Of a DNA stretch of 64,000 nt, positions 889 to 52,025 are shown one piece after another. Below the pieces are notes generated by a model that did no database searches, was not told the origin of the DNA, and saw only the letters and a list, made by a program, of their open reading frames with translations. The translations under genes were made by a program, and so were the position numbers. Where the stretch lies: NCBI GenBank assembly GCA_004376375.1, contig SOJX01000023.1, forward strand, positions 36,013 through 100,012, given 5' to 3'. The stretch is from Planctomycetota bacterium (GTDB lineage Bacteria > Planctomycetota > E44-bin39). Within the stretch, counting starts at the first letter, position 1. Each line of letters starts with the position of its first letter.

Positions 889-3066
889 TTATTTCCTTAT
901 TTCCTTGCACGAGCGGTAGATGAATCGAATTTCCTCAATCTTCCACGTGCCCGGTCCAGGGGGCAGATCGAGCCACAGGCTGTCCGCGATGCCGCGCTGA
1001 AAAACTGACTCGACCGGCTCTGAAAAGCGCCCGCTTCCCCCGGATTTATCAATGGAAACCAGGATATCTGAAAGCCTCATCCGCACGCCACGGACGCCCG
1101 GAACTTTCCCGATACCTCTCAGCCTGATACGCACGGGGAAACTCTCGTCAGGTTTCATGCGTAGGGGCAAGGCATGCCTTGCCCCTACAGACAATTCAAT
1201 CTCAACTTTCCACAAGCCGCAGAGCGGGACCGGCCGGTCCAGGAGCAAAGCCGTGCCGCCGCGGCCCGCGCGAAAAACGCCGGGGGAAACTATCTCGACA
1301 TCATGGCTCCGCGGTGAAAACTCTTCACCGGAAACGGTAACGGTTTCGTCGGCGCCGGCATACGCCTTCGCGGCCTCCGGGGTAACGTCTTCAAGCGTCA
1401 TCATGTCCGGATCGTACGCAATAAGGTGTGCGCCGTTCCCGAAGCGCGCGCAATCGTTTTGAAAATCTCCCGGCACGTGTGCGGAACCGGGAAAAAACGT
1501 CCATACATTTGCAGACATGGGAAAACCCGCGTGCGTAACCAGCATCGTCCTGAACCCGACCGCGAACGCCATCGCGCCGTCGACGTGCGGCGGGATATAG
1601 AGAAAATAGTAGCTGCCCGCGGCCGGCCCGGACTCCTTTACCAGCTTCCGCGCTTCACTCTCCAGCGATTTGCAGTGCATGCCCGCTTTCGTCCAGGGCG
1701 TAGTATTCAACTGGAGCATAACGCTCCACGCCAGCACAAGAAACAGTACGGCTGCTTTTCCGGGCGCACCCCGCCTTGCGAGTGCGGCCAGCGCCAGTGC
1801 AAGAATAATGCTGACCCCGAGCGTCGGCATATAGACGTACCTGGCGCAGCTCTGATAGTCGAGGTCCCTCAAGAGATGGAACACGGGCAGGAAGCTGAAC
1901 AGTGTTGCCGCGCCTGCAAAAACCATCAACCGCCAGCGGCGTCTGCGAAGGCAGAGAATTATTCCGAAACCGATAATCCCCGCGCAGATCGCCGAAAGCA
2001 ATATCGCAATAACGGGAATGCTTTCGCCGTACATCGCACGGTTTACCGGCGCCAGCCATGCGCCGAAAATATACCTCGGGTCGGCAAGCGCCCTTTTCAG
2101 CATCGTTATATGTCTTCCGGCGCTCGGGGGAATTGTCCTGTACGCGACAAGTCCCCCCAGGACACAGCATCTGATAATAAAAATGGTAATCACCGTAATC
2201 GAGCCGGCAAACCCAAGCGCCAGCCGCCGCCTGAAAACCTTTTTATTCAACGCCGCGCAAGCGCGGCCGCTAACATCACATGCCGGCAGGAGGATTACCA
2301 GCAGCAGTATGAGCGGCAGGGCCGCAAACCCGTTCTCTTTCGTCATCGGTGCCGTGCACAAAAAGGCCGCGCTGAGGACACACCGCCACCAGCCGCCGTG
2401 CCGCAGATAATTCAGACCGAAAATGAGCGCCAGCAGCGTAAACATCACGGTCATCTGATCGTGTATGCAGGAAGGCCACGCCACGGTCCCGACCGACGCG
2501 GGGTAAAGCAGGAAAAGCAGCCCGGCCAGCGCGGCCTCGATATTCAGGCGGAAAGCTCTCTTCATAAACAGGAATAGAAGCATGGCGCAGAGCGCATGAA
2601 CGACCAGGCTCGTCAGGTGGAATATCACCGGCGTAAAACCGAAAAGGCTGACCATGCAGTACCACTCGAGCCACGCGACGGGACGCCAGTACCCGACCAG
2701 AACCTGCTGCGAAAAAAAATACCCGACGCCCCGGGCACGGTGAACCGCCACGAAATTCTGCACATAGTCGTCGCAGAGGAAGCCGATTCCCAGCGTGCGG
2801 GAAAAAAGCAGAAGCGTTATCACGAAAAATACGGCGCCGACGACGGGAGCGCTAAGTCGGCGCGTCTCGCCCGGCAGCCGTCGTGACTCTTCCGGCATGC
2901 CGCTGCAAAGCGACAGGGCGATTCCAATCACAGCGACAGCAAGGCCCGGATAGTAATTAATCACATATTTCAGAAACCCCGGCAGAGCGGGAAGCTCGTT
3001 CCGGAAGAAACAGGAGACCGAGACGATAACAAACCCGAGAGCCGTGAGCGCGCACCCGGCATACAT
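889..3066 (-). CDS. polytopic membrane protein, GT-C-fold glycosyltransferase-like (YfhO/PMT-like), with a C-terminal extracytoplasmic domain
   Basis: At least 10 predicted TM helices, then a roughly 250-aa soluble C-terminal domain. The track ORF extends to 3603 but overlaps lspA, so the start is taken at the in-frame ATG at 3066 (residue 180 of the track ORF). The stop lies inside a CCTTATT tandem array. Two palindromic repeat copies sit in frame at 2246-2274 and about 1150-1185. Confidence 0.55.
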   Translation of the reverse strand: MYAGCALTALGFVIVSVSCFFRNELPALPGFLKYVINYYPGLAVAVIGIALSLCSGMPEESRRLPGETRRLSAPVVGAVFFVITLLLFSRTLGIGFLCDDYVQNFVAVHRARGVGYFFSQQVLVGYWRPVAWLEWYCMVSLFGFTPVIFHLTSLVVHALCAMLLFLFMKRAFRLNIEAALAGLLFLLYPASVGTVAWPSCIHDQMTVMFTLLALIFGLNYLRHGGWWRCVLSAAFLCTAPMTKENGFAALPLILLLVILLPACDVSGRACAALNKKVFRRRLALGFAGSITVITIFIIRCCVLGGLVAYRTIPPSAGRHITMLKRALADPRYIFGAWLAPVNRAMYGESIPVIAILLSAICAGIIGFGIILCLRRRRWRLMVFAGAATLFSFLPVFHLLRDLDYQSCARYVYMPTLGVSIILALALAALARRGAPGKAAVLFLVLAWSVMLQLNTTPWTKAGMHCKSLESEARKLVKESGPAAGSYYFLYIPPHVDGAMAFAVGFRTMLVTHAGFPMSANVWTFFPGSAHVPGDFQNDCARFGNGAHLIAYDPDMMTLEDVTPEAAKAYAGADETVTVSGEEFSPRSHDVEIVSPGVFRAGRGGTALLLDRPVPLCGLWKVEIELSVGARHALPLRMKPDESFPVRIRLRGIGKVPGVRGVRMRLSDILVSIDKSGGSGRFSEPVESVFQRGIADSLWLDLPPGPGTWKIEEIRFIYRSCKEIRK
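2246..2274. repeat. REP-like element copy located in frame inside the GT-C-like membrane protein gene
   Basis: TTCAACGCCGCGCAAGCGCGGCCGCTAAC on the plus strand encodes VSGRACAAL in the minus-strand CDS. Confidence 0.7.
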
Positions 3067-3134
3067 GACGGCGGGCCGACGAAAGACCTGGGGCAGTCCG
3101 GAATTTTCTTTTGCGTTATCGCTCAAGGTTGACT

Positions 3135-3851
3135 TCAGGATTCCTTCGGGGTCTCGGTTTCCACTTTGCGGGTAAGGAATTGCTTCGCCAGAATAAGCAC
3201 CACTCCGGCGACGATGAAGACGTCCGCCGGGTTGAAGGTCGGCCAGTGCGCGCCCGCCGGCGTACCGCGGACTTTTATCAGCCAATCGGCAAGGCCGGTC
3301 CAGAACTCGACTGAGAAATCGAGAAAGTCGCGGACCGCGTGGTGGAACATCCTGTCCCAGAGGTTCGCCACCGCGCCCGCCCCGATAAGAGAAAGCCCGA
3401 TCTGGTACACGCGCTCGCCGCCCGAAAGCCGGCTCAGAATCCAGATTATCACGCCGACGGCGACAACCGTGAAAACAATCAGGAAAGCCACGTTGGGGAG
3501 CATCCCGAACATCGCACCCGGGTTGAAAGAGAGCTGGACTGTAAAAAACTTTCTGATAACAACACGCCTGGGCGGCCGGACATCTACAACCCGTACGGGC
3601 CACTCCCCGGGGACGAGGGCAACCGGGTGAAGCCCGCTCCCGTACTCTTTTTGAAACATTGATTCAAAGGCTTTGGTATTTTTAACGTAGCCTATCTTGA
3701 ACGGGTCCTCGACGTAGACTATTCGATGGGGAACCGACCGAAACGCCAGCCACTTGCTTCCGAGGTCGATGAAGATGCCCGTAACCACCAGCACGTAAAA
3801 CAACCAGTGCGCCCTGAAATGGCGTGCAAGTTTTATTCGCAACGCTTTCAC
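3135..3851 (-). CDS. lspA: lipoprotein signal peptidase II (LspA), insertion-bearing
   Basis: Conserved LspA motifs NPGAMFG, GAVANLWDR, VRDFLDF and HWPTFNPADVFI, including both catalytic Asp residues. A roughly 70-aa insertion lies between TM1 and the NPGA motif. GTG start overlaps the stop of the upstream paralog (GTGA). Confidence 0.8.
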   Translation of the reverse strand: MKALRIKLARHFRAHWLFYVLVVTGIFIDLGSKWLAFRSVPHRIVYVEDPFKIGYVKNTKAFESMFQKEYGSGLHPVALVPGEWPVRVVDVRPPRRVVIRKFFTVQLSFNPGAMFGMLPNVAFLIVFTVVAVGVIIWILSRLSGGERVYQIGLSLIGAGAVANLWDRMFHHAVRDFLDFSVEFWTGLADWLIKVRGTPAGAHWPTFNPADVFIVAGVVLILAKQFLTRKVETETPKES

Positions 3852-6763: not shown

Positions 6764-7147
6764 GTGGGGAAAAGTTTTGAAGATCTTGAAGTATGGAAAC
6801 TGGCAAGGAAATTACGGGTGGACATCTATGACATTACGGAGAGCTTTCCATCACGCGAAAAGTATTCTCTTGTGAGTCAAATGCGACGGGCTGTACTCTC
6901 TGTTCCGGGCAATATAGCGGAAGGATACGGCAGATATCACTATAAGGAAAACATTCAGATGTGCAGGATTGCACGAGGCTCTTTGAACGAGTTGATTGAT
7001 TATTTATTCGCATCTGTGGATACAAAATACATTACTCAGGCGGTTTTCGAAACTCTTTACGCACAGGCAAGGGAAGTGGAAAAGGTTCTGAACGGATATA
7101 TAAAGTATTTGCAGAAACAGGCCGGCAAGGAAAAAGAGAAAGAATAA
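6764..7147 (+). CDS. four-helix-bundle protein (TIGR02436, 23S rRNA intervening-sequence protein family)
   Basis: MGKSFEDLEVWKLARKL...FPSREKYSLVSQMRRAVLSVPGNIAEG is characteristic of the family. Inserted between mlaF and mlaD and flanked by inverted AACAAGG/CCTTGTT tandem arms (6725-6760 and 7150-7200). Confidence 0.8.
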   Translation: MGKSFEDLEVWKLARKLRVDIYDITESFPSREKYSLVSQMRRAVLSVPGNIAEGYGRYHYKENIQMCRIARGSLNELIDYLFASVDTKYITQAVFETLYAQAREVEKVLNGYIKYLQKQAGKEKEKE

Positions 7148-7206: not shown

Positions 7207-9051
7207 ATGGATGAAAAAAAGCAACAGGATGCGCCGAAAGACCAGGTCGCAATAAGGCGCTCTCAGACACGCCGCGTTAACGCGATTGTCGGCCTAATCA
7301 CCGCGATCGGCGTGGTGGCGCTCCTGTGGTTTACCGTTAGGGTCACCGACGCGACGTTCTTCAAGTCCGGCTACTGGATCAAGGTCCGCTTCGACGAAAT
7401 CATCGGCCTGCAGGAAGGCGACCTCGTGACCTTCTCCGGCATGGTGGTGGGAAAAGTAAAATACATCGATCTCGTGGAAGACAGGGGAAAAACGCGCATC
7501 CAGTTGACCTGCTTTATCGAAGACAAGACACGTAAAAACGTGAAGGGGGAAGAAGAAACCTACCCCATCTACATCCCGGACGATTCCGTTTTCGATATCC
7601 GCTCGTCCAGCCTGCTCGGCGGCGTTACGCTCGTAATCGACCGCGGACAGTCGAAAGTCCCTATTCCTGATACGCGGAATCCTGACAAAATAGAAAAGGA
7701 AGACATTCGAAACGGACTGACTCCAATCTCTCTTGTTAAAGAAATTGAAAGAACCGCGAAATCCGTCGGCGACCTTGCGACGGAAACCAAGCCGTATATA
7801 AAAAACACTCTGCAGAACGTGGAAAACATAACCAGGAATGCCGAGGAATACGTCAAGCGGATGAACGAAGGCCCCGGCCTCCTCCACGGGCTCGCATACG
7901 ACAAGGAAACCTATGTGAAACTACGGTCCACCGTCGATTCGCTCAACAAGTTCGTGGGCAAGCTCGGGGAAAAGACCTCGATAGTCGATAACCTGGACGC
8001 TTCAATCTATAACGTAAAAAAAATCACCGACAACTTTGCCGGCGGCGAAGGGTTTCTCCCCTACCTGATAAGCGACAGATCGAAACCGATGGTCGGCAAG
8101 GTCAATTCAATACTGGACAACGTGAGCATCTTCTCCGCCAGGCTCGCGGCCGACAACAGCTTTATCGCGAGAATACAGGGACCGGAAGGCGAAGCCCTCT
8201 TCCACGATATCAGCGAAATCATAGGGCGTGTGAGGGCCCTCACAAACAACATGGAAAACTCCTCGGTCCACATGCTCCTTTCGGACGAGGGCAAGCTCTA
8301 CGAGGATTTCAAGGATTTCGCGGAGTCGCTGCGGCTTCTGGGACGCCAGGTCACCGGCCGCGGTGTTCCGAAGGACGAGCGTAACTCGATCGCGAGGCTC
8401 CTCACCGACAAGGGCGAACTGTACGACGACGCCATGGTGGGCGTAAAAAGTCTGCGCAAGTTCATGGAGCCGCTTGCGAGGCTTAAAACGAACGTCATCG
8501 TAGGTCATCACTCCTACAACGGTCAGGAACTCGGCGTCACCAGGTTCGGCATCAAGCTGATACCGCGCAGGTCGCGCTACTTCCTCCTCGGCGGCTCCCT
8601 CATGAGCCCGGACAAGAACGGGCCGATAGTCTTCGACGAAGACGATAAGGATAACGGTAAGAGCATTATATTCATAGACCTGCAGGTCGCGCAGCACATC
8701 TGGCTCAACGAAGTCGAGAACAAGCCCGACGACTGGCGCAACGTCATCCTTACCGGCCGCGTTGGCCTTCTCGAAGGCAAGTTCGGCGCGGGCGTCGACC
8801 TCGATTTCTGCAAAAATCTCCGCCTGACAGTCGAGGCGCGCGACTCCCACACCGACCACAAGGACTTCGACGAAAACGTGGAAGGCACGCTCCTGCGCTC
8901 CGAAATTTCATTCAAATTCGCAAAGTACTTCCGCGTCCACGTCGGGGCAGACAACCTTATCGACGACCCAGACTGGTCATTCGGCTTTTCGGTCGAATTT
9001 GAAGACCCCGACATCCGCGCGCTCGTGGCCGTCGCAGGAACCGGGCAATAA
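7207..9051 (+). CDS. mlaD: MCE-domain protein, long MlaD-like with beta-rich C-terminal domain
   Basis: N-terminal TM helix plus MCE domain, a long helical middle, then a C-terminal roughly 170 aa with alternating amphipathic beta-strand patterns (IIFIDLQVAQ, LRLTVEAR, SFGFSVEFE). Start taken at ATG 7207 (MDEKKQQ) rather than the track start at 7165. Confidence 0.8.
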   Translation: MDEKKQQDAPKDQVAIRRSQTRRVNAIVGLITAIGVVALLWFTVRVTDATFFKSGYWIKVRFDEIIGLQEGDLVTFSGMVVGKVKYIDLVEDRGKTRIQLTCFIEDKTRKNVKGEEETYPIYIPDDSVFDIRSSSLLGGVTLVIDRGQSKVPIPDTRNPDKIEKEDIRNGLTPISLVKEIERTAKSVGDLATETKPYIKNTLQNVENITRNAEEYVKRMNEGPGLLHGLAYDKETYVKLRSTVDSLNKFVGKLGEKTSIVDNLDASIYNVKKITDNFAGGEGFLPYLISDRSKPMVGKVNSILDNVSIFSARLAADNSFIARIQGPEGEALFHDISEIIGRVRALTNNMENSSVHMLLSDEGKLYEDFKDFAESLRLLGRQVTGRGVPKDERNSIARLLTDKGELYDDAMVGVKSLRKFMEPLARLKTNVIVGHHSYNGQELGVTRFGIKLIPRRSRYFLLGGSLMSPDKNGPIVFDEDDKDNGKSIIFIDLQVAQHIWLNEVENKPDDWRNVILTGRVGLLEGKFGAGVDLDFCKNLRLTVEARDSHTDHKDFDENVEGTLLRSEISFKFAKYFRVHVGADNLIDDPDWSFGFSVEFEDPDIRALVAVAGTGQ

Positions 9052-9097
9052 AACGCGTCAAACGTCGAACGTCCAACGTCAAACGTAATATTAAATT

Positions 9098-9130
9098 GTA
9101 GGGGCGGGTCTCAGACCCGCCCAATTCTTT
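9098..9130. terminator. GC-rich hairpin between convergent mlaD and lipoprotein genes (putative bidirectional terminator)
   Basis: GGGGCGGGTC-TCA-GACCCGCC stem-loop followed by AATTCTTT. Confidence 0.5.
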
Positions 9131-9145
9131 AACCTTATTCCCTTA

Positions 9146-10189
9146 TCAACTTGTTTCCTTATCCCCTTTTTCGACCGGCGGTTTTTCTTCTTCTTCCGAT
9201 TCGGATTCTTCTTCTACTTTTTCGGGGTCAATACGAAACTCATATAATGCTTTCCTTGCCGCCCGCCTTACACTGCTGTTACTATCTTCAAAATATGCCT
9301 GCTTCAGAGGTTCAATAGCCTTTTTATCACCAGTTGCGCTCAGGCAGTGTGCAGCTTCCCTGCGTACGCCTCCTGCCGGATCGTTCAGTAAAGCATAAAT
9401 TAGAGTCTTCATGTATTTCCTGCGATTCTTCCGGGTATTCTCCCAGAGCATTTCTTCACGCTTTCCAGGGTCTTGTTCATTTTTAAACTCATTCAGCAAC
9501 CTTTCAACTTCATCTTCATATCTTTTCTTCCGGGCTATATCCGTAGCTTCGTCATCTTGTTTAATGTCCAAACCGAACCAGCCACTTAAAAAGTCGGCCA
9601 TTTCAACCAGGCTGAGACCGAGTTCTATTCCTATTCCCACGCTTGCATGGACCGTCAGGTCCAGAAACCTGTCACTGTCTTCTGACCTCCAGTAATCACC
9701 TACCGTTCCCCATAAATCAGTGCTTACATCCAATCCGAGTATACCGCAATTACGCACTACCCATTTTCCATCCCAATCGACAATTTCAACACCGCTGGAG
9801 AACGGAAGGCAACATATTATTACCGTACCCTCAATCACTTCACCTAAGCCATCAAAGCTTGGAGTGTTGGTCGTTGTTGGAAAAGCACTGCTCTTCTCAA
9901 GTGCAAGGGAAGGACCCACTATATTAATAACAGGCAAGCCCAGGACAATAACTTTCTCGTCAACAAAATCGCGGCCAATAAACCCGATTCTTCGCTCCCA
10001 ACTCGCGCCGGCGGAGACATAAAACACGAGGCCCGATGTTCCAGCCGAAACGCCGTACCCATATCCGGCCTTTACCGTAAACATATCCACAAAATCCAGA
10101 CCGCGGTCTTTCAAATATGTCCCCAGCGACGCGCAGCCGGAAAAGGAAACAACAAACAGGAGGAGTAATGGAAAGATAAATCGTAACAT
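9146..10189 (-). CDS. lipoprotein with C-terminal HEAT (PBS-lyase-like) repeats and acidic tail
   Basis: Signal peptide with lipobox FSGC at the chosen ATG (10189). HEAT-like repeats (DPAGGVRREAAHCLSATGD, NSSVRRAARKAL). The track ORF extends upstream through a REP palindrome, so the shorter start is preferred. Confidence 0.6.
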   Translation of the reverse strand: MLRFIFPLLLLFVVSFSGCASLGTYLKDRGLDFVDMFTVKAGYGYGVSAGTSGLVFYVSAGASWERRIGFIGRDFVDEKVIVLGLPVINIVGPSLALEKSSAFPTTTNTPSFDGLGEVIEGTVIICCLPFSSGVEIVDWDGKWVVRNCGILGLDVSTDLWGTVGDYWRSEDSDRFLDLTVHASVGIGIELGLSLVEMADFLSGWFGLDIKQDDEATDIARKKRYEDEVERLLNEFKNEQDPGKREEMLWENTRKNRRKYMKTLIYALLNDPAGGVRREAAHCLSATGDKKAIEPLKQAYFEDSNSSVRRAARKALYEFRIDPEKVEEESESEEEEKPPVEKGDKETS

Positions 10190-10207
10190 TCTGCTACTCA
10201 TAAGGAT

Positions 10208-10271
10208 GTTAGCCGCGCCGCTTGCGGCGCGCGGTTTTCGGCACACCCGCCGCGCAAGCGCGGCGGCTAAC
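10208..10271. repeat. inverted pair of REP-like 29-bp elements upstream of the HEAT lipoprotein gene
   Basis: GTTAGCCGCGCCGCTTGCGGCGCGCGG ... CCGCCGCGCAAGCGCGGCGGCTAAC. Confidence 0.8.
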
Positions 10272-10441
10272 ACTGATTTCAATCAGATTACTTACATTCT
10301 ATGGCCGAATAACAATATTGCAATAAGAACATTCAACCGCCTGTCTTCCGAACCTCTTAACTTCTGAACTTCAACACTTCAGCACTTCAGCACTTCTTAA
10401 CCCCGGCACCCCAGCACCCCAGCACTCCTCCAAATTTCCCC

Positions 10442-15621: not shown

Positions 15622-15708
15622 AGTATGAAGGATGAAAAGAAGAATATATTATTAATAATATAATAATTAGCCGCCGAGCTTGCTCGGCGTGTCTTTTGGG
15701 TTAAAATA

Positions 15709-21721: not shown

Positions 21722-21890
21722 CATCGGTTATTGGTTATTGGTTATTGGTTATTGGTTAAAAATATGGGAAGCACCACGCCGGAAGGCGTGGTGACAATTG
21801 AGCGGGCGGGCTTGCCCGCCGTTAAAACAAAATTCGGGCGGGTCGCCGACCCGCCCAACACATAACGCGCGAAGCTCATTTGATTGGTGG

Positions 21891-21910
21891 GGCAGACATT
21901 CCTGTCTGCC
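21891..21910. repeat. GACAGACA-N4-TGTCTGTC palindrome family member (GGCAGACATTCCTGTCTGCC) adjacent to TAACGCGCGAAGCTC
   Basis: Other copies at 146-165, 23127-23146 and 45289-45310. The TAACGCGCGAAGCTC motif is at 21863-21877 and 45316-45330, and in reverse complement at 49745-49759. Confidence 0.8.
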
Positions 21911-22083
21911 CGCCGCAGGCGAAAGCCTGCGGCGAAACGCGGCGAGCAAGCTCGCCGGCTAATTACTGAGAAAACTCAATATCCATTGTATAAAAAACCG
22001 TTCTTAAAAAAGAAGTGATTCGACACTCGAAAATCGTAAATCGAAAATCACATATCGGCTACAATGAAGGCGCAGGTTGAACT

Positions 22084-22719: not shown

Positions 22720-22721
22720 AG

Positions 22722-22855
22722 AAAGTATGAAGGATGAAGGATAAAGGATGAAATTTATATTTAATAATTCTTAATTCATATTTCAGACTTCACACTTCTG
22801 CCTTCATACTTCAGCCTTCATACTTCATCCTTTCTTTACGGTTCGCGCTCTGAAT
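22722..22855. repeat. long hairpin of AGTATGAAGGATGAAGG / CCTTCATACTTCAT arrays between convergent genes
   Basis: AGTATGAAGGATGAAGGATAAAGGATGAAA ... CTTCATACTTCAGCCTTCATACTTCATCCTTTC around an AT-rich loop. Confidence 0.8.
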
Positions 22856-23099
22856 TTAATCGGTAGACGAAGGCGAGAATCTCCGCGATGACCTGGTAAA
22901 GCTCGTGCGGGATTTCAGTCTCCAGATCGAGCTTTGAAAGGACCGATGCGAGGTCCGCGTCCTCGTGCACAGGCACGCCGGCCTCGCGGGCTATCCGCAT
23001 AATCGCCTCCGCGACTATGCCCTTCCCTTTCGCGACGACGCGGGGGGCGGCGTCGCGTTCGGGCTCGTATCTGAGAGCTACGGCTACCTGTCTTTCCAT
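22836..23099 (-). CDS. FlhB C-terminal-domain-like small protein (YlqH-like)
   Basis: VAVALRYEPERDAAPRVVAKGKG...AEAIMRIAREAGVPVHEDADLA...ELYQVIAEILAFVYRL matches the FlhB/EscU C-terminal fold family. Start at ATG 23099. Confidence 0.75.
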   Translation of the reverse strand: MERQVAVALRYEPERDAAPRVVAKGKGIVAEAIMRIAREAGVPVHEDADLASVLSKLDLETEIPHELYQVIAEILAFVYRLNSEREP

Positions 23100-23182
23100 T
23101 GCGTATACCCGCAAAATAATCGGTACGACAGACATTTCTGTCTGTCGATTGCAGGGGCAAGGCATGCCTTGCCCCTACATTT

Positions 23183-24688
23183 TTACACGATAATATCTAT
23201 CAGTTGCAATCCCTCGGGCCCGCCGAAACCTTCGAGGAAACGCCTCGGCGGCGCTTCCGGGTCGCGCACGGCCGTGCGCACCTCGACCTCGTAACCGAGC
23301 TGCCGGAGCGCGCCCTCGAGAATGTATGCGCGCGTATCGAAAAGCGCCTTCGTCGCCTCGTCATCTACAATGAATCCGACGACGATGTTGCGCCGGTCCA
23401 TCACCACTTCGCCGAGCACGTCGCCGAGATACTCGAGCGACAGATCGATAACCGCCCTGCGCGGGGTTTCGTCATCGCCGGCTTCGCGGCCCCCGCGCCT
23501 GACGTTGAACCGCAGGCGAATGCAATCCTCGGCCGCGCCGAACGCAACGAGAAGCTGGGCGTAGCTGACGTCGTCGAGCGCCGCCGTCGCCGCCGCGTTC
23601 AAAGCCTTGACCGCCGCGAACCTGTCGGAAAGCCGATCGAGCTCTCCGTACGCCCGGGCAAGGGGCTTGAAGATTTCATACCGCGAAATCTCGAATTTCT
23701 CCCGGTCCTGGAGTAATCGGTGCGCGTCTTTCAATTCCGCCGGGCGAAGCTGCTTCAGGAGATTAACCAGGGCATCGCCGTCGGGCTTTTCCGCAATTAT
23801 CGCCGCGCGGACGTCTTTGCCGAGGACAGCCTTTCCCCCCGCTTCGCCTGCTTCCTGACCGGCTTCGGCAATCAGCTTCGCCGCCGCGGCGACAGCCTTG
23901 CCGAGCTCGACGAGCACCGGGTCTGATTTCAGAATGCCGCTTGCTATCGATTCGATCCCGGCCTGGAACGCCCGCGCCTGCTCGACAGCTCCGCCGCGCG
24001 CAAGGTTTGCAAGCTCTCCGGCCGTCCCCGCCTGCTCCAGAGTAACATGCAGGGCGTGAAGCCCGCCCGCAATCTCCTTTACGGCAGCGGTCTGCCCGAG
24101 CCCGGGAAAATGCGCCCGGTCGAGCGCGTTCGCAGCGTTACGCAGAACCCGTGCGGTTTCTCCCACGGGCCGTGCAAGGTCGGCCGCGGCCGCCACCAGG
24201 CGCGGGGTAAGCGGAATATTATTTTTTACCAGATACGCCGCCGCGGTCACCGCGGCGGGGAAATCGACCGGCGCATGCGCCGCAGCCGTTCGGACGGCCT
24301 CGATATTTTCCAGCGTCGCCGACGCGCCCGCGCGGTTGAGCGCTTCTACGATAACCAGGTTTTCGCGCGTCGGCTGCAGCCCCATATCGGCCAGAGCGGT
24401 CATAATCGTCCGCGGCGCGGCCGGCGCAGTCGCGTCGAGGGACGGGGCGACCGGCACAAGCGTAACACCGCCCCCGTCGCGCGGTTCAACGGCAAACTGC
24501 ACAAGTTCGCCTTCGGCGAGCGTGAACGGAACGGTCATTGAAAACGTGGCGCCGAAAAGGTTGACGAGGGGCTGACCGTCGGGCGAAATTCCGACGACGC
24601 GGCCGGTGACGGTCGAACCGATGTAGGCCGCCAGCGTGTCGGGCAGACCGCCCGGAGTTGGTGAAAATCCGAATGCAGATATATCCAT
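23183..24688 (-). CDS. Flg_hook-domain-like protein (FliK-like / YlqG-like), function unknown
   Basis: 501 aa, Ala-rich. The C-terminal segment VIDLSLEYLGDVLGEVVMDRRNIVVGFIVDDEATKALF resembles the hook-length-control C-terminal domain. Immediately upstream of the FlhB-C-like gene. Confidence 0.45.
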   Translation of the reverse strand: MDISAFGFSPTPGGLPDTLAAYIGSTVTGRVVGISPDGQPLVNLFGATFSMTVPFTLAEGELVQFAVEPRDGGGVTLVPVAPSLDATAPAAPRTIMTALADMGLQPTRENLVIVEALNRAGASATLENIEAVRTAAAHAPVDFPAAVTAAAYLVKNNIPLTPRLVAAAADLARPVGETARVLRNAANALDRAHFPGLGQTAAVKEIAGGLHALHVTLEQAGTAGELANLARGGAVEQARAFQAGIESIASGILKSDPVLVELGKAVAAAAKLIAEAGQEAGEAGGKAVLGKDVRAAIIAEKPDGDALVNLLKQLRPAELKDAHRLLQDREKFEISRYEIFKPLARAYGELDRLSDRFAAVKALNAAATAALDDVSYAQLLVAFGAAEDCIRLRFNVRRGGREAGDDETPRRAVIDLSLEYLGDVLGEVVMDRRNIVVGFIVDDEATKALFDTRAYILEGALRQLGYEVEVRTAVRDPEAPPRRFLEGFGGPEGLQLIDIIV

Positions 24689-25164
24689 CAGTCGCGTCCG
24701 CGTTTCATCCGGACCATGTAATCCTTGAAGCCGAAGCGCTCCCAGAATTTCTTCGTCTTTTCATTCAGGACGAGAGCGTTCAACTGAACGGTAACGGCGC
24801 CGTTATTCTCGAGTATCTTGAGCGCGTCCTCGATGAGGGCGGTGCCGAAGCCGAAACTCCGGACTTCCTTTATAACGAAAACGTTTGATATGTAACCGAT
24901 GCGCCTTGTCTTGAAAAACGGCGCATCCGTCACGCTCGAGATGGCAAAACCGAACGGTTTATCTTCCCACGTAATCAGCCTGATAAAGAGGTCGTTGCGC
25001 TTCATCTCGGCAAGGTAGAAATCGCGCGCGCTCCCCTGCCAGTCCGGAGCGGGGGTGAAGTCAGGCTCTATCTCGGATTTTTCCGCAAGGTATTCCCCCA
25101 CGAGGCCGATAAAAACATCTACCCGCTCTTCGGTAAGGTTGGTTATTACGGCTTCTCCCGCCAC
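24688..25164 (-). CDS. GNAT family N-acetyltransferase
   Basis: Acetyl-CoA binding motif RSFGFGTALI and overall GNAT layout. Confidence 0.8.
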   Translation of the reverse strand: MAGEAVITNLTEERVDVFIGLVGEYLAEKSEIEPDFTPAPDWQGSARDFYLAEMKRNDLFIRLITWEDKPFGFAISSVTDAPFFKTRRIGYISNVFVIKEVRSFGFGTALIEDALKILENNGAVTVQLNALVLNEKTKKFWERFGFKDYMVRMKRGRD

Positions 25165-25217
25165 CGTTTTACTCCATTCAGGTAATATCCAATAGTATCA
25201 GGATGAAGCCGCCCCGG

Positions 25218-25300
25218 CAAGCGAAAAGGAAGTGCTGGAGTGCTGGCGTGCTGGAGTGCTGGCGTGCTGGAGTGCTGGGGTGCTGGGGTGCTGGAGTTAG
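25218..25300. repeat. tandem array of nine (A/G)GTGCTGG octamers
   Basis: GTGCTGGAGTGCTGGCGTGCTGG and so on. The same unit appears in reverse complement at 10365-10430 and 40525-40560. Confidence 0.85.
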
Positions 25301-25411: not shown

Positions 25412-25447
25412 ATTAAAATACAACGCCCGGGAGCAGAGCTCCCGGGC
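25412..25447 (-). terminator. intrinsic terminator downstream of the LysM-protein gene
   Basis: GCCCGGGAGCAGAGCTCCCGGGC hairpin followed on the minus strand by a U-rich tract (GUUGUAUUUUAAUGG). Confidence 0.6.
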
Positions 25448-25484
25448 AGGTGCACAACACGTAAAGCAGTTACTTCTTCTTCGC

Positions 25485-28487: not shown

Positions 28488-28952
28488 ATGGTCGCGCCTC
28501 TGGCCGAAAATGCGTTCTATTTCAACGGCATAACGTCGCCGGGCAACAGCCCGAACGCAGCCCAGGTGGCGCAGTCTACGCAGACCACACCGGCGACTGC
28601 TGACCGGGTTGAAATCTCCAATGCGGCTGAAGACGTCCTCCGCGCGGCTACGGGAACGCCCAAAACGACTGAAAGCCCGCAAAGCAAGGCATCGACGGCT
28701 GAAAGTGCAAGCAGAATGCCGCCGCAGTCTTCTGTCGCGGCCCAGCAGCAGGTTGCGGACGAGACACGCGAACGGCAGGTGCGAAATATTTCCACAACAT
28801 ACAAGGTTGTCGGTGAATCCGACGACATTCAGTCCAACCTTATCGACCCCATCACCGGCGAAAACTTTTATCAGGCCCCGACCGACCAGACAGTTGTCGT
28901 CGAGGAGCAGGATATCGTCCTGGTCGGCCAGATTTTCGATTCGCTGATGTAG
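28488..28952 (+). CDS. hypothetical secreted/disordered protein, possibly FlgM-like
   Basis: Ser/Thr/Gln-rich N-terminal half and a DRVEISNAAEDVL segment reminiscent of FlgM. Flanked by a consensus promoter upstream and a clean intrinsic terminator downstream. Confidence 0.35.
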   Translation: MVAPLAENAFYFNGITSPGNSPNAAQVAQSTQTTPATADRVEISNAAEDVLRAATGTPKTTESPQSKASTAESASRMPPQSSVAAQQQVADETRERQVRNISTTYKVVGESDDIQSNLIDPITGENFYQAPTDQTVVVEEQDIVLVGQIFDSLM

Positions 28953-29134: not shown

Positions 29135-29821
29135 GTGAGTACTCGTGTGGCAATACTATTACCATGCCCGAAGTGCGGCAAACGCGTAAACCTTCAGAAC
29201 GAGTACGCTGGCAAAAAGTGGAAGTGCGCGGGCTGCAAGCTCAAATTCCGCGTACCGGACCCGAAGAGACACAAGCTCGGTTCCGTTAAATGCACCTGCG
29301 GAAGCATGATCGAGACGTGGGACGTTTTCGCAAAAGAGGGGGTATTCTGCCCGGGGTGCAAAAAAATCTACTCCTCCGGCAAGGCCTCAAAACTGCCGTC
29401 CATAATTCCCGTCGGGGGGAAGAAAAAGAAAGGAAAAGAAAAAAAGAAAAAGAAGGAAAAGAAAAAAGCACGTCCTTCCCCTGCCCCCGAAGTCCTGGAA
29501 ATCCCCGAGCTGGAAGTCGACGACGAAGACCTGCTGCTTAACGTGGAAGAGGAAGTGATAGACGGGGCGGAACTCCTGATCGAAAACGATCTGGAGCTTG
29601 CCGACGAAATCAAACTTGTTGAAAACATCGAGCATGTTGAAAACATCGAGCTTGTTGAAGACATCGAGCATGTTGAAAACATCCAGCTTGTTGAAGAGAT
29701 CGAGCTTGTTTCAGACGAACAGGAAAAGCTCCCGTTTCCCGACCGCCGCAGAGGCGCCCGCAGAAAAGGCGACAGGCGCAAGGGCGACCGCCGCAAAGGC
29801 GGCAGAAGGAAAAGCGAATAA
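29135..29821 (+). CDS. double zinc-ribbon protein with poly-Lys, acidic pentapeptide repeats and Arg-rich tail
   Basis: CPKCG...CAGC and CTCG...CPGC ribbons. Repeats of VENIEH/VEDIEL are encoded by six tandem 15-bp DNA repeats (29610-29710). C-terminal RRKGD repeats. Confidence 0.55.
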   Translation: MSTRVAILLPCPKCGKRVNLQNEYAGKKWKCAGCKLKFRVPDPKRHKLGSVKCTCGSMIETWDVFAKEGVFCPGCKKIYSSGKASKLPSIIPVGGKKKKGKEKKKKKEKKKARPSPAPEVLEIPELEVDDEDLLLNVEEEVIDGAELLIENDLELADEIKLVENIEHVENIELVEDIEHVENIQLVEEIELVSDEQEKLPFPDRRRGARRKGDRRKGDRRKGGRRKSE

Positions 29822-45197: not shown

Positions 45198-45405
45198 CGG
45201 CCGCGCTTGCGCGGCGCTGAATAAAAAAAGGAAAACAAGGGAACAAGAAAACAAGGAAACAAGGAAGAAAGGAATAAGGAAATGGTAGGACAGACATTCC
45301 TGTCTGTCCATAAGATAACGCGCGAAGCTCCTTAACCCTTGTTGCCTTGTCAACCTGTTACCTTGTCACTTCCCCAGTCAACGCGCCGCAAGCGGCGCCG
45401 CTAAC
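45193..45405. repeat. composite nested palindromic element with no gene inside
   Basis: GTTAGCGGCCGCGCTTGCGCGGCGCTGAA (45193-45221) and its inverted copy (45378-45405) bracket the AACAAGG array (45225-45285), the GGACAGACATTCCTGTCTGTCC palindrome (45289-45310), TAACGCGCGAAGCTC (45316-45330) and the CCTTGTT array (45335-45370). Confidence 0.85.
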
Positions 45406-49888: not shown

Positions 49889-49916
49889 TTGACAATATCT
49901 CAATTATGCGTATAAT
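49889..49916 (+). promoter_or_regulatory. sigma-70-like promoter upstream of the first YfbK-like VWA gene (TTGACA-16-TATAAT)
   Basis: Sits in a 260-bp AT-rich intergenic region. Confidence 0.5.
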
Positions 49917-49971
49917 CCTGATAGAAAGCCTGCGATGTTCAAATTATCGAATTCAAAAAAGGAGAAGTGTT

Positions 49972-51945
49972 ATGACAGCAGGAAAAAAGGAAATCGAGAG
50001 CATTTTCAACAGTAAAGGGAAGCGCAGGTGGATTGGATCATCAGGTGTTTTTCTTTTCTCCATCGGGTTTCACGCCCTTGTTTTGCTCGTCGCAGCGGGA
50101 ATCACGTTCTGCCTGGCGGTGAAGAAAAAGGATATAACTTTTTCTATCAAACGTGAAACCAAGGTGCAGGAGTACGACCCCGAACTCGTGCGCGATATTT
50201 TCAAAAGGCCGAGAGTCCTCGCCGACAGGATTGTAGAAAGACCGATCATAATGCTTGAAGATGAAATCGAAATCACAAAAGACATCCCGCTTGGGACCAG
50301 CTTCGACAGCCTGTCCAACAAACACCTTGAATCCGACTCGATTATCGATGCTTATGGAAGCATCGGCGGCGCTTCCGGCGCCTACGGAGAAAAGGCGCCT
50401 GGCGGAAGTAGTTATTGCATGTGCTGGGGTGCTTGCGGCAGTTGTTCAGCAGAATCAGCCAAAACGCCTGAGGAAAAAGGTCCGCACGCGATTTTCTATC
50501 TGGACAACGGGGAGAATCCGTTCATCGACGCGAGCTGGGACCGCCTCTCCACCTTCGCCATAGACGTTGACACGGCGTCATACACGATAGCGAGAGACTA
50601 TATTAAGAAAGGCGAACTCCCGCCGAAAAAAACCGTCCGCATCGAAGAATTCATTAACTACATGAATTACGAATACACATCCCCCTGGAACAATAATTTT
50701 GCCATCCACCTCGAAGCCGCGCCGTCGAAGTTCGGGAGGGAAGATGCGCACAAACTCCTCAGGGTTGCCATCAAGGGAATGGACCTGACTTCGAGCGAGC
50801 GCAAACCGGCTGTGCTTACGTTCGTCATCGACGTATCGCAGTCGATGAGCGAGGAAAACCGGCTGGTGCTTGTCAAGAAATCGCTCAAACTTCTTCTGGA
50901 CCAGTTGATGGACGGCGACAAGGTCGGGATTGTTATTTACAGCACCGAGGCGACACTTATTACGGAACCGCTTCCGATATCCGAGCGCGAGAAGCTTGTG
51001 AGCGCGATCGAGAGCCTCCAGATCGACTACTGGACCAACCTCGATGCCGGGCTGATGCTGGGTTACGAAATCGCGGAAAGGCATTTCCAGAGGCATGCGA
51101 CCAACCGCATAATCCTCTGCTCCGACGGTGTGCCCACCAGGGGGGAAACTTCTGCGGAAAAAATCCTGGAGAAGGCGAAAAAGTATATCGAAAAAGGAAT
51201 CAACATCTCAACCATAGGTATCGGGACGGGCCACGACGACGAGTTTATGGAAAAACTTGCCGACAAGGGTAACGGAAACTACGTCTACCTGGATACCTGC
51301 AAAGAGGCAGAACGCCTCTTTGCCGACTGCGCGGTCGGCCTTCTGGAGGTTCTCGGCAGCGATATGAAAGTGCAGGTCGATTTCAATCCCGACGTTGTCG
51401 ACTCTTACCGCCTGCTCGGTTACGAGAACCGGAAGATCGCGGACAAGGATTTCAGGAACGATAAAGTCGACGCGGGCGAGATCGGGCCCGGGCATTCCGT
51501 TACCGCGCTCTACGAGCTGAAGCTGCATGACGACGTTGCGGAAGGCATCGTCGCCACCGTTTTCGTCCGCTACAAAGACCCCGAATACCAGGATGAGGTA
51601 AAGGAAATCAAGCAGAGTTTTCCGCTTGCGAGCATAAGGGAGACATTCGAAGACGCCTCGGCCGATTTCCGCCTCGCCGCGGCGACCGCCGAGCTCGCCG
51701 AGGTCCTGAAAGACAGCTTCTTCGCGCGGGAATCCGACCTCGAGCCGGTGGTGGAGCTCACCGAATACCTTGCACACGAGATGTACGACAGGGAAGACGT
51801 TCAGGACCTGGCCAAGCTTGTCAAGAAAGCAAGAGAGGTCCGGACGGATAAGGTTCAAAAGCGCGTCGCTCTTGAGAGAAGCGAAGATAACGTCAGCAGA
51901 ATACCACGCGACAAAAGCGCGATAATAGTCGGCATACCCCGATAA
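49972..51945 (+). CDS. von Willebrand factor A domain protein, YfbK-like (N-terminal TM, VWA, DUF3520-like C-terminus)
   Basis: MIDAS motif DVSQSMS, VWA fold, and a conserved C-terminal domain. Start at ATG 49972 downstream of a TTGACA-16-TATAAT promoter. Confidence 0.8.
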   Translation: MTAGKKEIESIFNSKGKRRWIGSSGVFLFSIGFHALVLLVAAGITFCLAVKKKDITFSIKRETKVQEYDPELVRDIFKRPRVLADRIVERPIIMLEDEIEITKDIPLGTSFDSLSNKHLESDSIIDAYGSIGGASGAYGEKAPGGSSYCMCWGACGSCSAESAKTPEEKGPHAIFYLDNGENPFIDASWDRLSTFAIDVDTASYTIARDYIKKGELPPKKTVRIEEFINYMNYEYTSPWNNNFAIHLEAAPSKFGREDAHKLLRVAIKGMDLTSSERKPAVLTFVIDVSQSMSEENRLVLVKKSLKLLLDQLMDGDKVGIVIYSTEATLITEPLPISEREKLVSAIESLQIDYWTNLDAGLMLGYEIAERHFQRHATNRIILCSDGVPTRGETSAEKILEKAKKYIEKGINISTIGIGTGHDDEFMEKLADKGNGNYVYLDTCKEAERLFADCAVGLLEVLGSDMKVQVDFNPDVVDSYRLLGYENRKIADKDFRNDKVDAGEIGPGHSVTALYELKLHDDVAEGIVATVFVRYKDPEYQDEVKEIKQSFPLASIRETFEDASADFRLAAATAELAEVLKDSFFARESDLEPVVELTEYLAHEMYDREDVQDLAKLVKKAREVRTDKVQKRVALERSEDNVSRIPRDKSAIIVGIPR

Positions 51946-52025
51946 TCAGCCGATTATCCGGCATACAGTCTATGCAGAACTGAAGATTGGACTCAGATTA
52001 TGTTGTTATAAAAAGGAGAAGTGTT

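Follow-up and report, generated by a model that had tools for sequence, protein, structure and literature searches.

Bacillus subtilis is flagellated and carries, besides the ylqG-ylqH gene pair, a FliK that is separate from YlqG. A comparable pair is described in Pseudomonas putida, whose genome has both fliK and fliK2; the latter (PP_4328) forms with flhX (PP_4329) a FliA-dependent operon located in the flagellar cluster or linked to it. In Helicobacter pylori, FlhX (HP1575) is reported to substitute in part for FlhB_CC. In the flagellar export apparatus itself, the last five residues of FliK are reported to engage FlhB_CCD, which keeps the gate in early mode (PMC13344023), and a 2026 study describes FlhB_CC as the inhibitory piece that is ejected by the FliK tail. 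An flhX-fliK pair is also mentioned for Nitratiruptor, and published work counts FlhX and the FliK-like protein next to it among the flagellar proteins.

The locus considered here lies in a 64-kb stretch of planctomycete DNA, the whole of which is called the window. The first-pass annotation had singled out two open reading frames, and both are present on the minus strand, one of 501 aa (23183-24688) and one of 87 aa (22836-23099). They very probably belong to the FliK-type and FlhX families. The locus is a new member of a known and very common pair (ylqG-ylqH, fliK2-flhX), for which housekeeping placement is normal, and it is in that sense ordinary. The annotation gain is a routine one, since two Planctomycetota MAG proteins carried as "hypothetical" or "EscU-family" can now be identified, one as a T3S4 protein of the FliK family and the other as an FlhX.

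The small gene and its FliK-type partner

The small gene (22836-23099, minus strand) encodes a free-standing FlhB_CC homologue of the FlhX/YlqH type, recognized through Pfam, NCBIfam and the FlhB_C structures. Its longest open reading frame would give 109 aa from a start at 23165; the 87-aa start is backed by the orthologue in locus L004, whose N-terminus is MDRQVAVAL. The protein matches Pfam Bac_export_2 over the last 75 positions of the model only (261-335 of 335; E=1.7e-22). Its best NCBIfam model is TIGR00789 (flhB_rel) at 104.3 bits, compared with 83 bits for the full-length FlhB model, and flagellar FlhB models outscore SctU models. The TIGR00789 score falls under the curated cut-off of 117.35 bits, which points to a divergent member and not to a non-member, because relatives at 60-70% identity make one continuous family.

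The 87-aa protein aligns to FlhB residues ~270-353, that is, to the post-cleavage chain B of 3B1S and 3B0Z (E=1e-14). The alignment begins at the H of NPTH, and the N-terminus MERQVAVALRY occupies the place of the FlhB stretch PTHYSVALQY. Neither an NPTH motif nor a transmembrane domain is present in the protein, and the motif NP[TESAQ]H occurs in none of its 120 closest relatives. All of these are 85-110 aa long, the length range of the more than 2000 stand-alone relatives. Judged by sequence, the 87-aa product is the counterpart of the FlhB fragment left after NPTH autocleavage (FlhB_CC). The small protein had been taken for an FlhB/EscU autocleavage domain; the homology to the FlhB C-terminus holds, but what it matches is the post-cleavage fragment and not an autocleaving domain.

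The 501-aa partner (23183-24688, minus strand) is a FliK-family, YlqG-like protein by its reading frame, Pfam, family alignments and a structural model. From the N-terminus onwards it consists of a beta domain, two helical repeats of the LGLPxTxEN type, a helical linker that is long and rich in Ala, a switch domain of the T3S4 type and a tail of the FliK type. The switch domain (Flg_hook; ~aa 374-476, 23261-23569, minus strand) is placed by Pfam, the AF2 model and Foldseek. Taken alone, the protein matches Flg_hook at aa 406-469 with 21.9 bits (E=1.6e-4) and does not reach the Pfam gathering score of 29.8, so the FliK-like assignment made at first pass is sub-threshold for the single sequence. 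It becomes convincing because evidence from the family and from the fold is added to this match. Nine of 11 aligned relatives match Flg_hook, with a best E of 1.4e-9, and the FlhX partner in locus L133 reaches 39 bits. The AF2 model of aa 367-501, built from a 25-sequence alignment, has a mean pLDDT of 77.6 (84-97 in the core), and its top Foldseek match in the PDB is 5CUK, the substrate-switch domain of PscP (E=7.6e-4, probability 1.0, target TM 0.57). 5CUK is the sole PDB match at E<=1e-3; 2RRL, FliK_C, is found with a probability of 0.99.

Other comparisons are less telling. A full-length AF2 model from a 2-sequence alignment (pLDDT 51) was too poor for use, the family sequence profile matched no T3S4 structure across the PDB and gave spurious helical matches only, and hhalign of the family to E. 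coli FliK finds the right region weakly (E=0.013, probability 3%). Relatives were gathered by exhaustive search of representative proteins; searching a word index with the 501-aa protein and with an 11-sequence profile brought up only the protein itself and one relative, probably through flooding by the Ala-rich linker. The 11-sequence alignment has no stretch of 7-10 residues that is conserved throughout.

The protein ends in the pentapeptide IDIIV-COOH (23186-23200, minus strand), of the motif h-D-h-x-[AVIG]. This tail is found in 81 of 100 representative relatives, and its aspartate, D498, is invariant in both family alignments (A2 and A5). E. coli FliK ends in VDIFA, a motif of the same type. 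The tail also resembles ADVIV in the E. coli FlhB strand that precedes the cleavage site (KADVIVNN, then PTH). The model and the alignments give the 501-aa product both a substrate-specificity-switch domain of the T3S4 type and a C-terminal pentapeptide of the FliK type. Between related MAGs the small protein shares 76-92% identity with its counterparts and the partner 52%; both genes are therefore under constraint.

Pairing and genomic context

Most genomes with the small gene have the partner gene next to it. A Flg_hook-type gene lies directly upstream of flhX in 15 of 18 FlhX loci, usually overlapping it or a few nucleotides away, and this, with the conserved terminal motif and the absence of NPTH in the relatives examined, is what the survey adds. 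Flagellar clusters make up ~40% of the FlhX loci examined and the remainder are housekeeping contexts, one of them in a Bacillales genome that is flagellated. The pair is found within flagellar clusters in L008, L009, L125, L130 and L133, and among housekeeping genes in Cohnella (L121), L006, L007 and L122-L124. In Cohnella, of the Bacillales, the order is rnhB, a gene for a 603-aa protein with a weak Flg_hook match, the FlhB-C-like gene and, further on, sucC and sucD, which is the ylqG-ylqH neighbourhood of B. subtilis.

The resemblance to YlqG-YlqH proposed at first pass is borne out by this synteny and by the N-terminal region of the large protein. The region of aa 24-170 (24179-24619, minus strand), comprising the beta domain and the helical repeats, is common to the Cohnella protein in the YlqG position (603 aa, L121:8193-10004), with an hhalign probability of 97% and E=1.2e-10 over profile columns 25-222. 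An HMM of the region finds matches in nine FlhX partners (L004, L006, L007, L009 and L121-L124 among them), and Pfam gives a faint match to DUF6240.

Is the large protein simply the FliK of this organism? In three of the flagellar clusters (L008, L009, L125) the Flg_hook partner stands after fliM-fliN-fliA or before flgF-flgL. Such a position, the pair mentioned for Nitratiruptor and the complete T3S4 fold and tail needed for switching would all suit a sole FliK, secreted as a hook-length ruler, with flhX a mere conserved downstream neighbour and no separate cytoplasmic FliK2-FlhX module. We consider this unlikely. Canonical rulers have an unfolded, export-competent N-terminus, whereas the N-terminal 170 residues here are predicted to be folded and are homologous to those of the Cohnella protein; furthermore, B. 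subtilis has its separate FliK and P. putida both genes. A pair distinct from the ruler remains the preferred reading.

The absence of flagellar structural genes from the window, as reported at first pass, is confirmed. Pfam searches of 49 open reading frames and phmmer searches of all open frames, seeded with 36 E. coli and 4 planctomycete-like flagellar proteins, found no flagellar gene in the 64 kb besides the FlhB-like one. The 154-aa frame at 28488-28952 had been called FlgM-like; it has no Pfam or NCBIfam match at E<=1 and no phmmer match with E. coli FlgM at 1e-4. The product is a hypothetical protein that is conserved in L004 at 65% identity.

It is conceivable that the lineage has no flagellum and that the pair either survives as a relic in decay or now serves a function outside flagella, as the first-pass annotation implied. 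Like the window, the 15-20 kb surrounding the pair in L004, L006, L007 and L122-L124 contain no flagellar gene. In L006 the pair sits between recC and recB/recD, and the coupling to an upstream acetyltransferase gene is kept in two genomes. This explanation is nevertheless very unlikely. The pair is not decaying, because both genes are intact and strongly conserved, the small one at the identities given above and the partner in its tail and fold. Cohnella has the pair in the same kind of housekeeping placement, and B. subtilis, which has this arrangement too, is flagellated. In many genomes the flagellar genes lie scattered, those of Campylobacterota being spread over ~30 loci, and the family tracks flagellar genomes, as the phyletic pattern of COG2257 follows that of flagellar COGs. 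A non-flagellar context, singled out earlier as noteworthy, is typical of the pair and not special, because the same placement recurs in Cohnella and several MAGs; elsewhere the pair is in flagellar clusters. Since the window has no flagellar genes, a flagellar role in this organism is assumed from the relatives.

Apparent operon and spacer hairpins

The acetyltransferase noted nearby at first pass is the first gene of an apparent operon. It encodes a GNAT of 158 aa (24688-25164, minus strand; Pfam Acetyltransf_1, E=1.7e-11), and its stop codon shares 1 nt with the ATG of the 501-aa gene. The orthologue in L004, at 63% identity, overlaps the next gene in the same way, by 1 nt; the more distant L123 has no GNAT upstream of the pair. 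A candidate promoter, TTGCCG-N17-TACTAT (25192-25220, minus strand), can be read upstream of the GNAT gene, and its L004 equivalent is TTGCCG-N17-TACCAT. The site is sigma-70-like and not sigma-28-like, and inspection by eye found no sigma-28 promoter upstream of the operon. At the other end, between the convergent FlhX-like and DUF2225/TPR genes, a low-complexity imperfect inverted repeat (GAAGGATGAAGTATGAAGG...; 22720-22835) may form a bidirectional terminator region. On balance we favour a three-gene operon of GNAT, FliK-family protein and FlhX, the last two genes being the widespread ylqG-ylqH/fliK2-flhX flagellar type III export module.

Between the 501-aa and 87-aa genes lies a spacer of 83 nt (23100-23182), almost all of it two REP-like hairpins. 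Hairpin 1 (GTAGGGGCAAGGCATGCCTTGCCCCT on the minus strand) spans 23151-23178 and hairpin 2 (CGACAGACAGAAATGTCTGTCG) 23126-23147, so that the two palindromes described at first pass are indeed present (as palindromes they extend over 23153-23176 and 23126-23147). Their architecture is GTAG, a stem and CTAC, a short GC-rich palindrome that fits a REP-like dispersed hairpin. The spacer hairpins are best read as a later insertion of such elements, which would at most change how stable the mRNAs of the two genes are relative to each other, or how well they are translated.

The palindromes had been thought to suggest regulated coupling, and they might be a dedicated device, such as an attenuator, a processing site or a protein-binding site, that couples or uncouples the two genes. 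They fill the spacer exactly. The other loci examined are all tight or overlapping (gaps of -4 to +46 nt), so an insertion must change the coupling here, and REP hairpins within operons can stabilise upstream mRNA, as at malE-malF of E. coli. However, both hairpin words recur at unrelated sites in the window (two exact copies of one, three to four of the other), and one of them is found as an exact word of 26-28 nt at more than 109 places, among the matches listed, in genomes of many phyla. In the orthologous L004 pair the genes are 6 nt apart and the hairpins are missing. Moreover, the coding strand lacks a T-tract, so that the hairpins are not an intrinsic terminator for the operon. A dedicated device is accordingly improbable, and dispersed elements inserted later remain the better account of the spacer.

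One spacer palindrome occurs as an identical 28-mer across many phyla, sometimes in frame within genes. A planctomycete MAG with the same word has nothing else in common with the window, and no flagellar match was found in its 8 loci. The palindrome sequence gave no literature match, and Y1_Tnp (RAYT) matched none of the 49 open reading frames scanned in the window.

A possible switch module and its described counterparts

How might the two products act together? Since FlhB_CC is reported to be inhibitory and to be expelled by the FliK tail, an FlhB_CC that is encoded separately, together with a FliK-like partner, readily suggests itself as a candidate means to reset or tune the switch. Through its T3S4 domain and tail, the 501-aa protein would bind FlhX as FliK_C binds FlhB_CC. 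The terminal IDIIV is similar to ADVIV, the FlhB_CN strand before the cleavage site, and this strand is missing from FlhX; the partner may therefore supply it and keep FlhX soluble. If so, the pair could modulate the early-to-late switch in export, or re-arm it, at the flagellar gate, which FlhB_CC would hold in early mode until FliK ejects it. Both the binding of the two products and the strand mimicry are drawn from a motif of five residues and from analogy, and we give the binding and switch mechanism an even chance.

A bolder possibility, which we regard as doubtful, is that the pair duplicates the flagellar specificity switch in a soluble and self-contained form, with the partner tail replacing the FlhB_CN strand, and so mimics cleaved FlhB_C. 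Such a complex would store a spare FlhB_CC and deliver it to gates that have ejected theirs. Gates would thereby be re-armed to early-substrate mode, for example whenever a dimorphic planctomycete builds a new flagellum; alternatively, FliK would be buffered. In a more radical variant the lineage would be aflagellate and a non-flagellar role of the module would be linked to the co-transcribed GNAT.

Compared with injectisome ruler and switch pairs, the modelled C-terminal domain is like that of PscP/YscP, partner of PscU/YscU, in having the PscP structure as its best match; unlike those pairs, the locus has none of their genes nearby and its small protein favours flagellar FlhB over SctU models. 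The likeness to the FliK_C-FlhB_C switch of Salmonella and E. coli lies in the T3S4 fold and terminal h-D-h-x-A/V pentapeptide of the partner and in the FlhB_CC sequence of the small protein. Here, however, FlhB_CC is a separate gene product that does not arise by NPTH cleavage and has no membrane tether, and the N-terminus of the partner is unlike that of E. coli FliK. The small protein has in common with H. pylori FlhX that it is a stand-alone FlhB_CC homologue. With the FliK2-FlhX system of P. putida the locus shares a protein with a FliK C-terminal domain followed by an FlhB_CC-like FlhX, but it has no flagellar neighbourhood and its promoter-like site is not sigma-28-like. Differently to the Cohnella locus, where a 603-aa partner overlaps flhX by 4 nt, the partner here is 501 aa and is separated by the 83-nt REP-filled spacer, and the upstream-coupled GNAT is found only in this planctomycete clade. 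Like B. subtilis YlqG-YlqH, seen through Cohnella, the locus combines a housekeeping neighbourhood with a large protein that has the same N-terminal domain and a weak Flg_hook end and is encoded upstream of an FlhB_CC-like protein of ~100 aa.

The two proteins of the pair

The 87-aa ORF (22836-23099, minus strand) has a longest reading of 109 aa; the shorter one is preferred because the orthologue in a related MAG begins MDRQVAVAL, aligning with the internal methionine. The product matches Pfam Bac_export_2 over the last 75 positions only (E=1.7e-22), and among NCBIfam models TIGR00789, "FlhB-like flagellar biosynthesis protein", scores best, its 104 bits (cut-off 117 bits) exceeding those of every full-length FlhB or SctU model. 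Among PDB sequences it aligns with chain B of FlhB_C crystal structures, the NPTH autocleavage fragment, from the His of NPTH onward. The FlhB C-terminal homology proposed in the first-pass annotation therefore holds, but not the autocleavage loop, since MERQVAVALRY stands where E. coli FlhB has KADVIVNN/PTHYSVALQY (slash, cleavage site). Stand-alone relatives of 85-110 aa number more than 2000, at 60-70% identity, and an NPTH-like motif was found in none of the 120 closest. By sequence, the protein is a member of the FlhX/YlqH family, in which FlhB_CC, the fragment following the cleavage site, is encoded as a gene product of its own.

The 501-aa partner (23183-24688, minus strand) is identical to hypothetical protein E3J72_02980 of a Planctomycetota MAG and is present also in GCA_030588815.1. 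Taken alone, its Flg_hook match (aa 406-469) is sub-threshold, at 21.9 bits against 29.8, and the FliK-like reading proposed earlier becomes solid only when family-level Pfam matches, fold, tail motif and the link to YlqG are taken together. An exhaustive profile search returned 99 relatives, several aligned over their full length, and Flg_hook is matched by 9 of 11 aligned family members (best 1.4e-9). For the last 135 residues, AF2 modelling with 25 relatives in the alignment gave a core pLDDT of 84-97; at E<=1e-3 this model matches a single PDB structure, the substrate-specificity-switch domain of PscP, an injectisome ruler (5CUK), and the FliK C-terminal domain 2RRL matches with probability 0.99. 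The protein ends in IDIIV, as E. coli FliK ends in VDIFA, and a hydrophobic-D-hydrophobic-x-[AVIG]-COOH tail is shared by 81 of 100 representative relatives, the Asp being invariant in alignments. Profile-profile comparison with E. coli FliK (hhalign) aligned the right region at low probability, and the sequence profile of the family retrieved no entry of the FliK-type switch domain (T3S4) from the PDB. The N-terminal 170 residues, predicted to form a beta domain and two LGLPxTxEN-type helical repeats, match a 603-aa protein at the ylqG position in a Cohnella genome (hhalign probability 97%), and that longer protein, which shares the N-terminal domain, also has a weak Flg_hook C-terminus. The comparison with YlqG-YlqH drawn in the first-pass annotation was thus apt.

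Genomic setting

The survey of the pair covered 18 loci that carry flhX as a stand-alone gene and have legible upstream sequence (the window, L004, L006-L010, L121-L128, L130, L132 and L133); upstream genes were called Flg_hook-type with an HMM of the family C-terminal domain or with Pfam. Such a gene lies directly upstream of flhX on the same strand in 15 of them, the two genes overlapping by up to 4 nt or lying up to 46 nt apart, so that the 83-nt gap of the window is an outlier. Compared with the nearest related MAG (L004), FlhX is 76% identical and the partner 52%; against a metagenome contig that is closer still, FlhX identity reaches 92%.

When all open frames of the window were searched by phmmer, using as queries 36 flagellar and chemotaxis proteins of E. 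coli plus four planctomycete-like FliM/FliN seeds, only the 87-aa ORF was matched, via FlhB, which bears out the claim that the window is devoid of flagellar structural genes. By ORF annotation the remaining genes have housekeeping functions and include lspA, mlaEFD, nusA and infB, an acyl-CoA dehydrogenase, a Na+-decarboxylase set, xanthine dehydrogenase, a prepilin peptidase, VWA proteins, M16 peptidases and a Ser/Thr kinase with an ECF-type sigma factor. The supposed FlgM-like neighbour (28488-28952, plus strand, 154 aa) showed no detectable FlgM similarity and no family match; it is a conserved hypothetical protein with a 65% identical counterpart at the syntenic position of the related MAG. 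Three further plus-strand features were recorded: a 127-aa "23S rRNA-intervening sequence protein"/bAvd-like four-helix-bundle gene between mlaF-like ABC ATPase and mlaD-like genes (6764-7147); a 228-aa protein (29135-29821) with N-terminal zinc ribbons (weak matches, and the only ones found), a stretch rich in Lys, acidic repeats of the VENIEHVENIELVEDIEH type and, at the C-terminus, a RRKGDRRKGDRRKG tail; and tandem paralogous VWA/YfbK-type proteins of 679 and 676 aa with the same domain order (49906-54017).

Elsewhere, flagellar genes within 10 kb accompany the pair in several arrangements: fliM-fliN-fliA, two ORFs and partner-flhX (L008, L009); flhA...fliA...partner-flhX-flgF/G/H/I/K/L (L125); and fliD-fliS, with fliC too in L133, followed by partner-flhX (L130, L133). 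On the short contig L131, fliA adjoins flhX. No flagellar gene was found near the pair in the window, L004, L006, L007 (Nitrospinota), L122-L124 or the Cohnella locus. In L006, a 474-kb metagenome contig, the pair (8850-10276) lies between recC and recB/recD, with a 4-nt overlap with the downstream helicase gene, an odd site for a flagellar accessory pair.

The Cohnella order is rnhB - partner - flhX - ... - sucC - sucD - dprA - topA, which we take to match the ylqG-ylqH neighbourhood of B. subtilis, a flagellated organism. Housekeeping placement is therefore a normal state of the pair and is not evidence for an organism without flagella, and the non-flagellar context, put forward as unusual, proves typical of the family. 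In the literature FlhX is routinely grouped with flagellar export proteins, the phyletic pattern of COG2257 tracks flagellar COGs, and in P. putida a fliK2-flhX operon is FliA-dependent, its function not being established.

Transcription unit and spacer hairpins

Three consecutive minus-strand ORFs begin with a GNAT acetyltransferase gene (158 aa, 24688-25164), whose stop codon has one base in common with the ATG of the 501-aa ORF. They look like one transcription unit, since a hairpin with T-tract (25424-25448) ends the upstream LysM gene and a TTGCCG-N17-TACTAT site 5' of the GNAT gene is kept in the relative; this candidate promoter appears to be of housekeeping rather than sigma-28 type. 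The GNAT coupling is kept in the nearest relative (63% identity, same 1-nt overlap) and missing in the next clade out.

The two palindromes between the 501-aa and 87-aa ORFs (23151-23178 and 23126-23147) are real, but the regulated coupling suggested for them is not upheld, as both belong to dispersed hairpin families and the relative lacks them. The 22-nt core GGGGCAAGGCATGCCTTGCCCC of one recurs at 1164-1185; the second word recurs with 2-3 mismatches at 145-166 and 45288-45309, with a related copy at 21890-21911. Intergenic DNA of this genome is rich in such GC hairpins and in short-period low-complexity tracts. The junction in the related MAG is TGA-ggcaaa-ATG, and no T-tract follows the spacer hairpins on the coding strand. 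Because the hairpins are dispersed, the relative's junction has 6 nt and a T-tract is absent, we regard the spacer as a REP-like insertion that incidentally uncouples two cistrons and not as a purpose-built regulator.

Other recurring GC-rich hairpin words in the window are GGGCGGGTC.GACCCGCCC, GGRCAGACATTCCTGTCTGYCC, CGCGCCGCAAGCGGCGCG and CGGCGAGCAAGCTCGCCG; recurring sites lie at 128-166, 9102-9122, 10214-10266, 15672-15689, 21770-21960, where five different hairpins are packed together, and 45288-45400. Low-complexity intergenic tracts (ggtactcggtactcgg, ggttattggttattgg, gaaggatgaagtatgaagg, ccagcactccagcacgccagc, aacaaggaaacaagg) occupy 190-210, 21735-21760, 22720-22835, 25235-25300 and 45235-45270.

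Species-representative genomes of many phyla, among them Chloroflexota, Ignavibacteria, Bacteroidota, CPR, Nitrospirota, Cyanobacteria and Desulfuromonadales, contain the 26-mer GTAGGGGCAAGGCATGCCTTGCCCCT of one spacer palindrome as an exact word, in at least 109 stretches. The exact palindrome GTAGGGGCAAGGCATGCCTTGCCCC(TAC) is found at 1161-1188 and 23151-23178 of the window and in L011-L119; flanks beyond GTA...TAC are unrelated between copies, and low-complexity tracts similar to those of the window flank it in unrelated phyla (e.g., L014, L029, L056, L090, L111). It looks like a GTAG-headed REP, with the same 28-mer across phyla, and a literature search for the sequence found no paper containing it. 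About a fifth of the copies in L011-L119 (25/112) lie in frame inside long ORFs, reading GARHALPL or RGKACLAP, among them two within queA of a CPR Peribacteria genome (L108 3589-4692); the copy at 1161-1188 is likewise in frame, inside a 904-aa ORF (889-3603, minus strand). Such copies suggest that the palindrome is tolerated in proteins as a short insertion.

A putative switch in two soluble parts

According to a 2026 study (PMC13344023), cleaved FlhB_CC holds the export gate of the flagellum in its early-substrate mode and is lost at hook completion; it is engaged and expelled by the last five residues of FliK, with help from the T3S4 region in its folded state. It is exactly these FlhB_CC and FliK switch elements that the pair encodes as separate soluble proteins, and by analogy the 501-aa protein would bind FlhX through its T3S4 domain and tail. 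That tail, IDIIV, follows the pattern of ADVIV, the strand of FlhB_CN preceding the cleavage site, whose pairing partner in FlhB_C crystal structures is the first FlhB_CC strand. Because the tail resembles this strand, which FlhX is without, the partner may complete the FlhX fold, keeping it deliverable. An account of H. pylori has FlhX replacing FlhB_CC in part, which fits a role as spare or modulatory FlhB_CC. We infer this whole mechanism from homology and a short motif.

The initial observation was largely correct, and the aspects claimed as unusual are not upheld. The significance of the locus is modest: it adds a further case of an already known, functionally open gene pair, that of ylqG-ylqH and fliK2-flhX.
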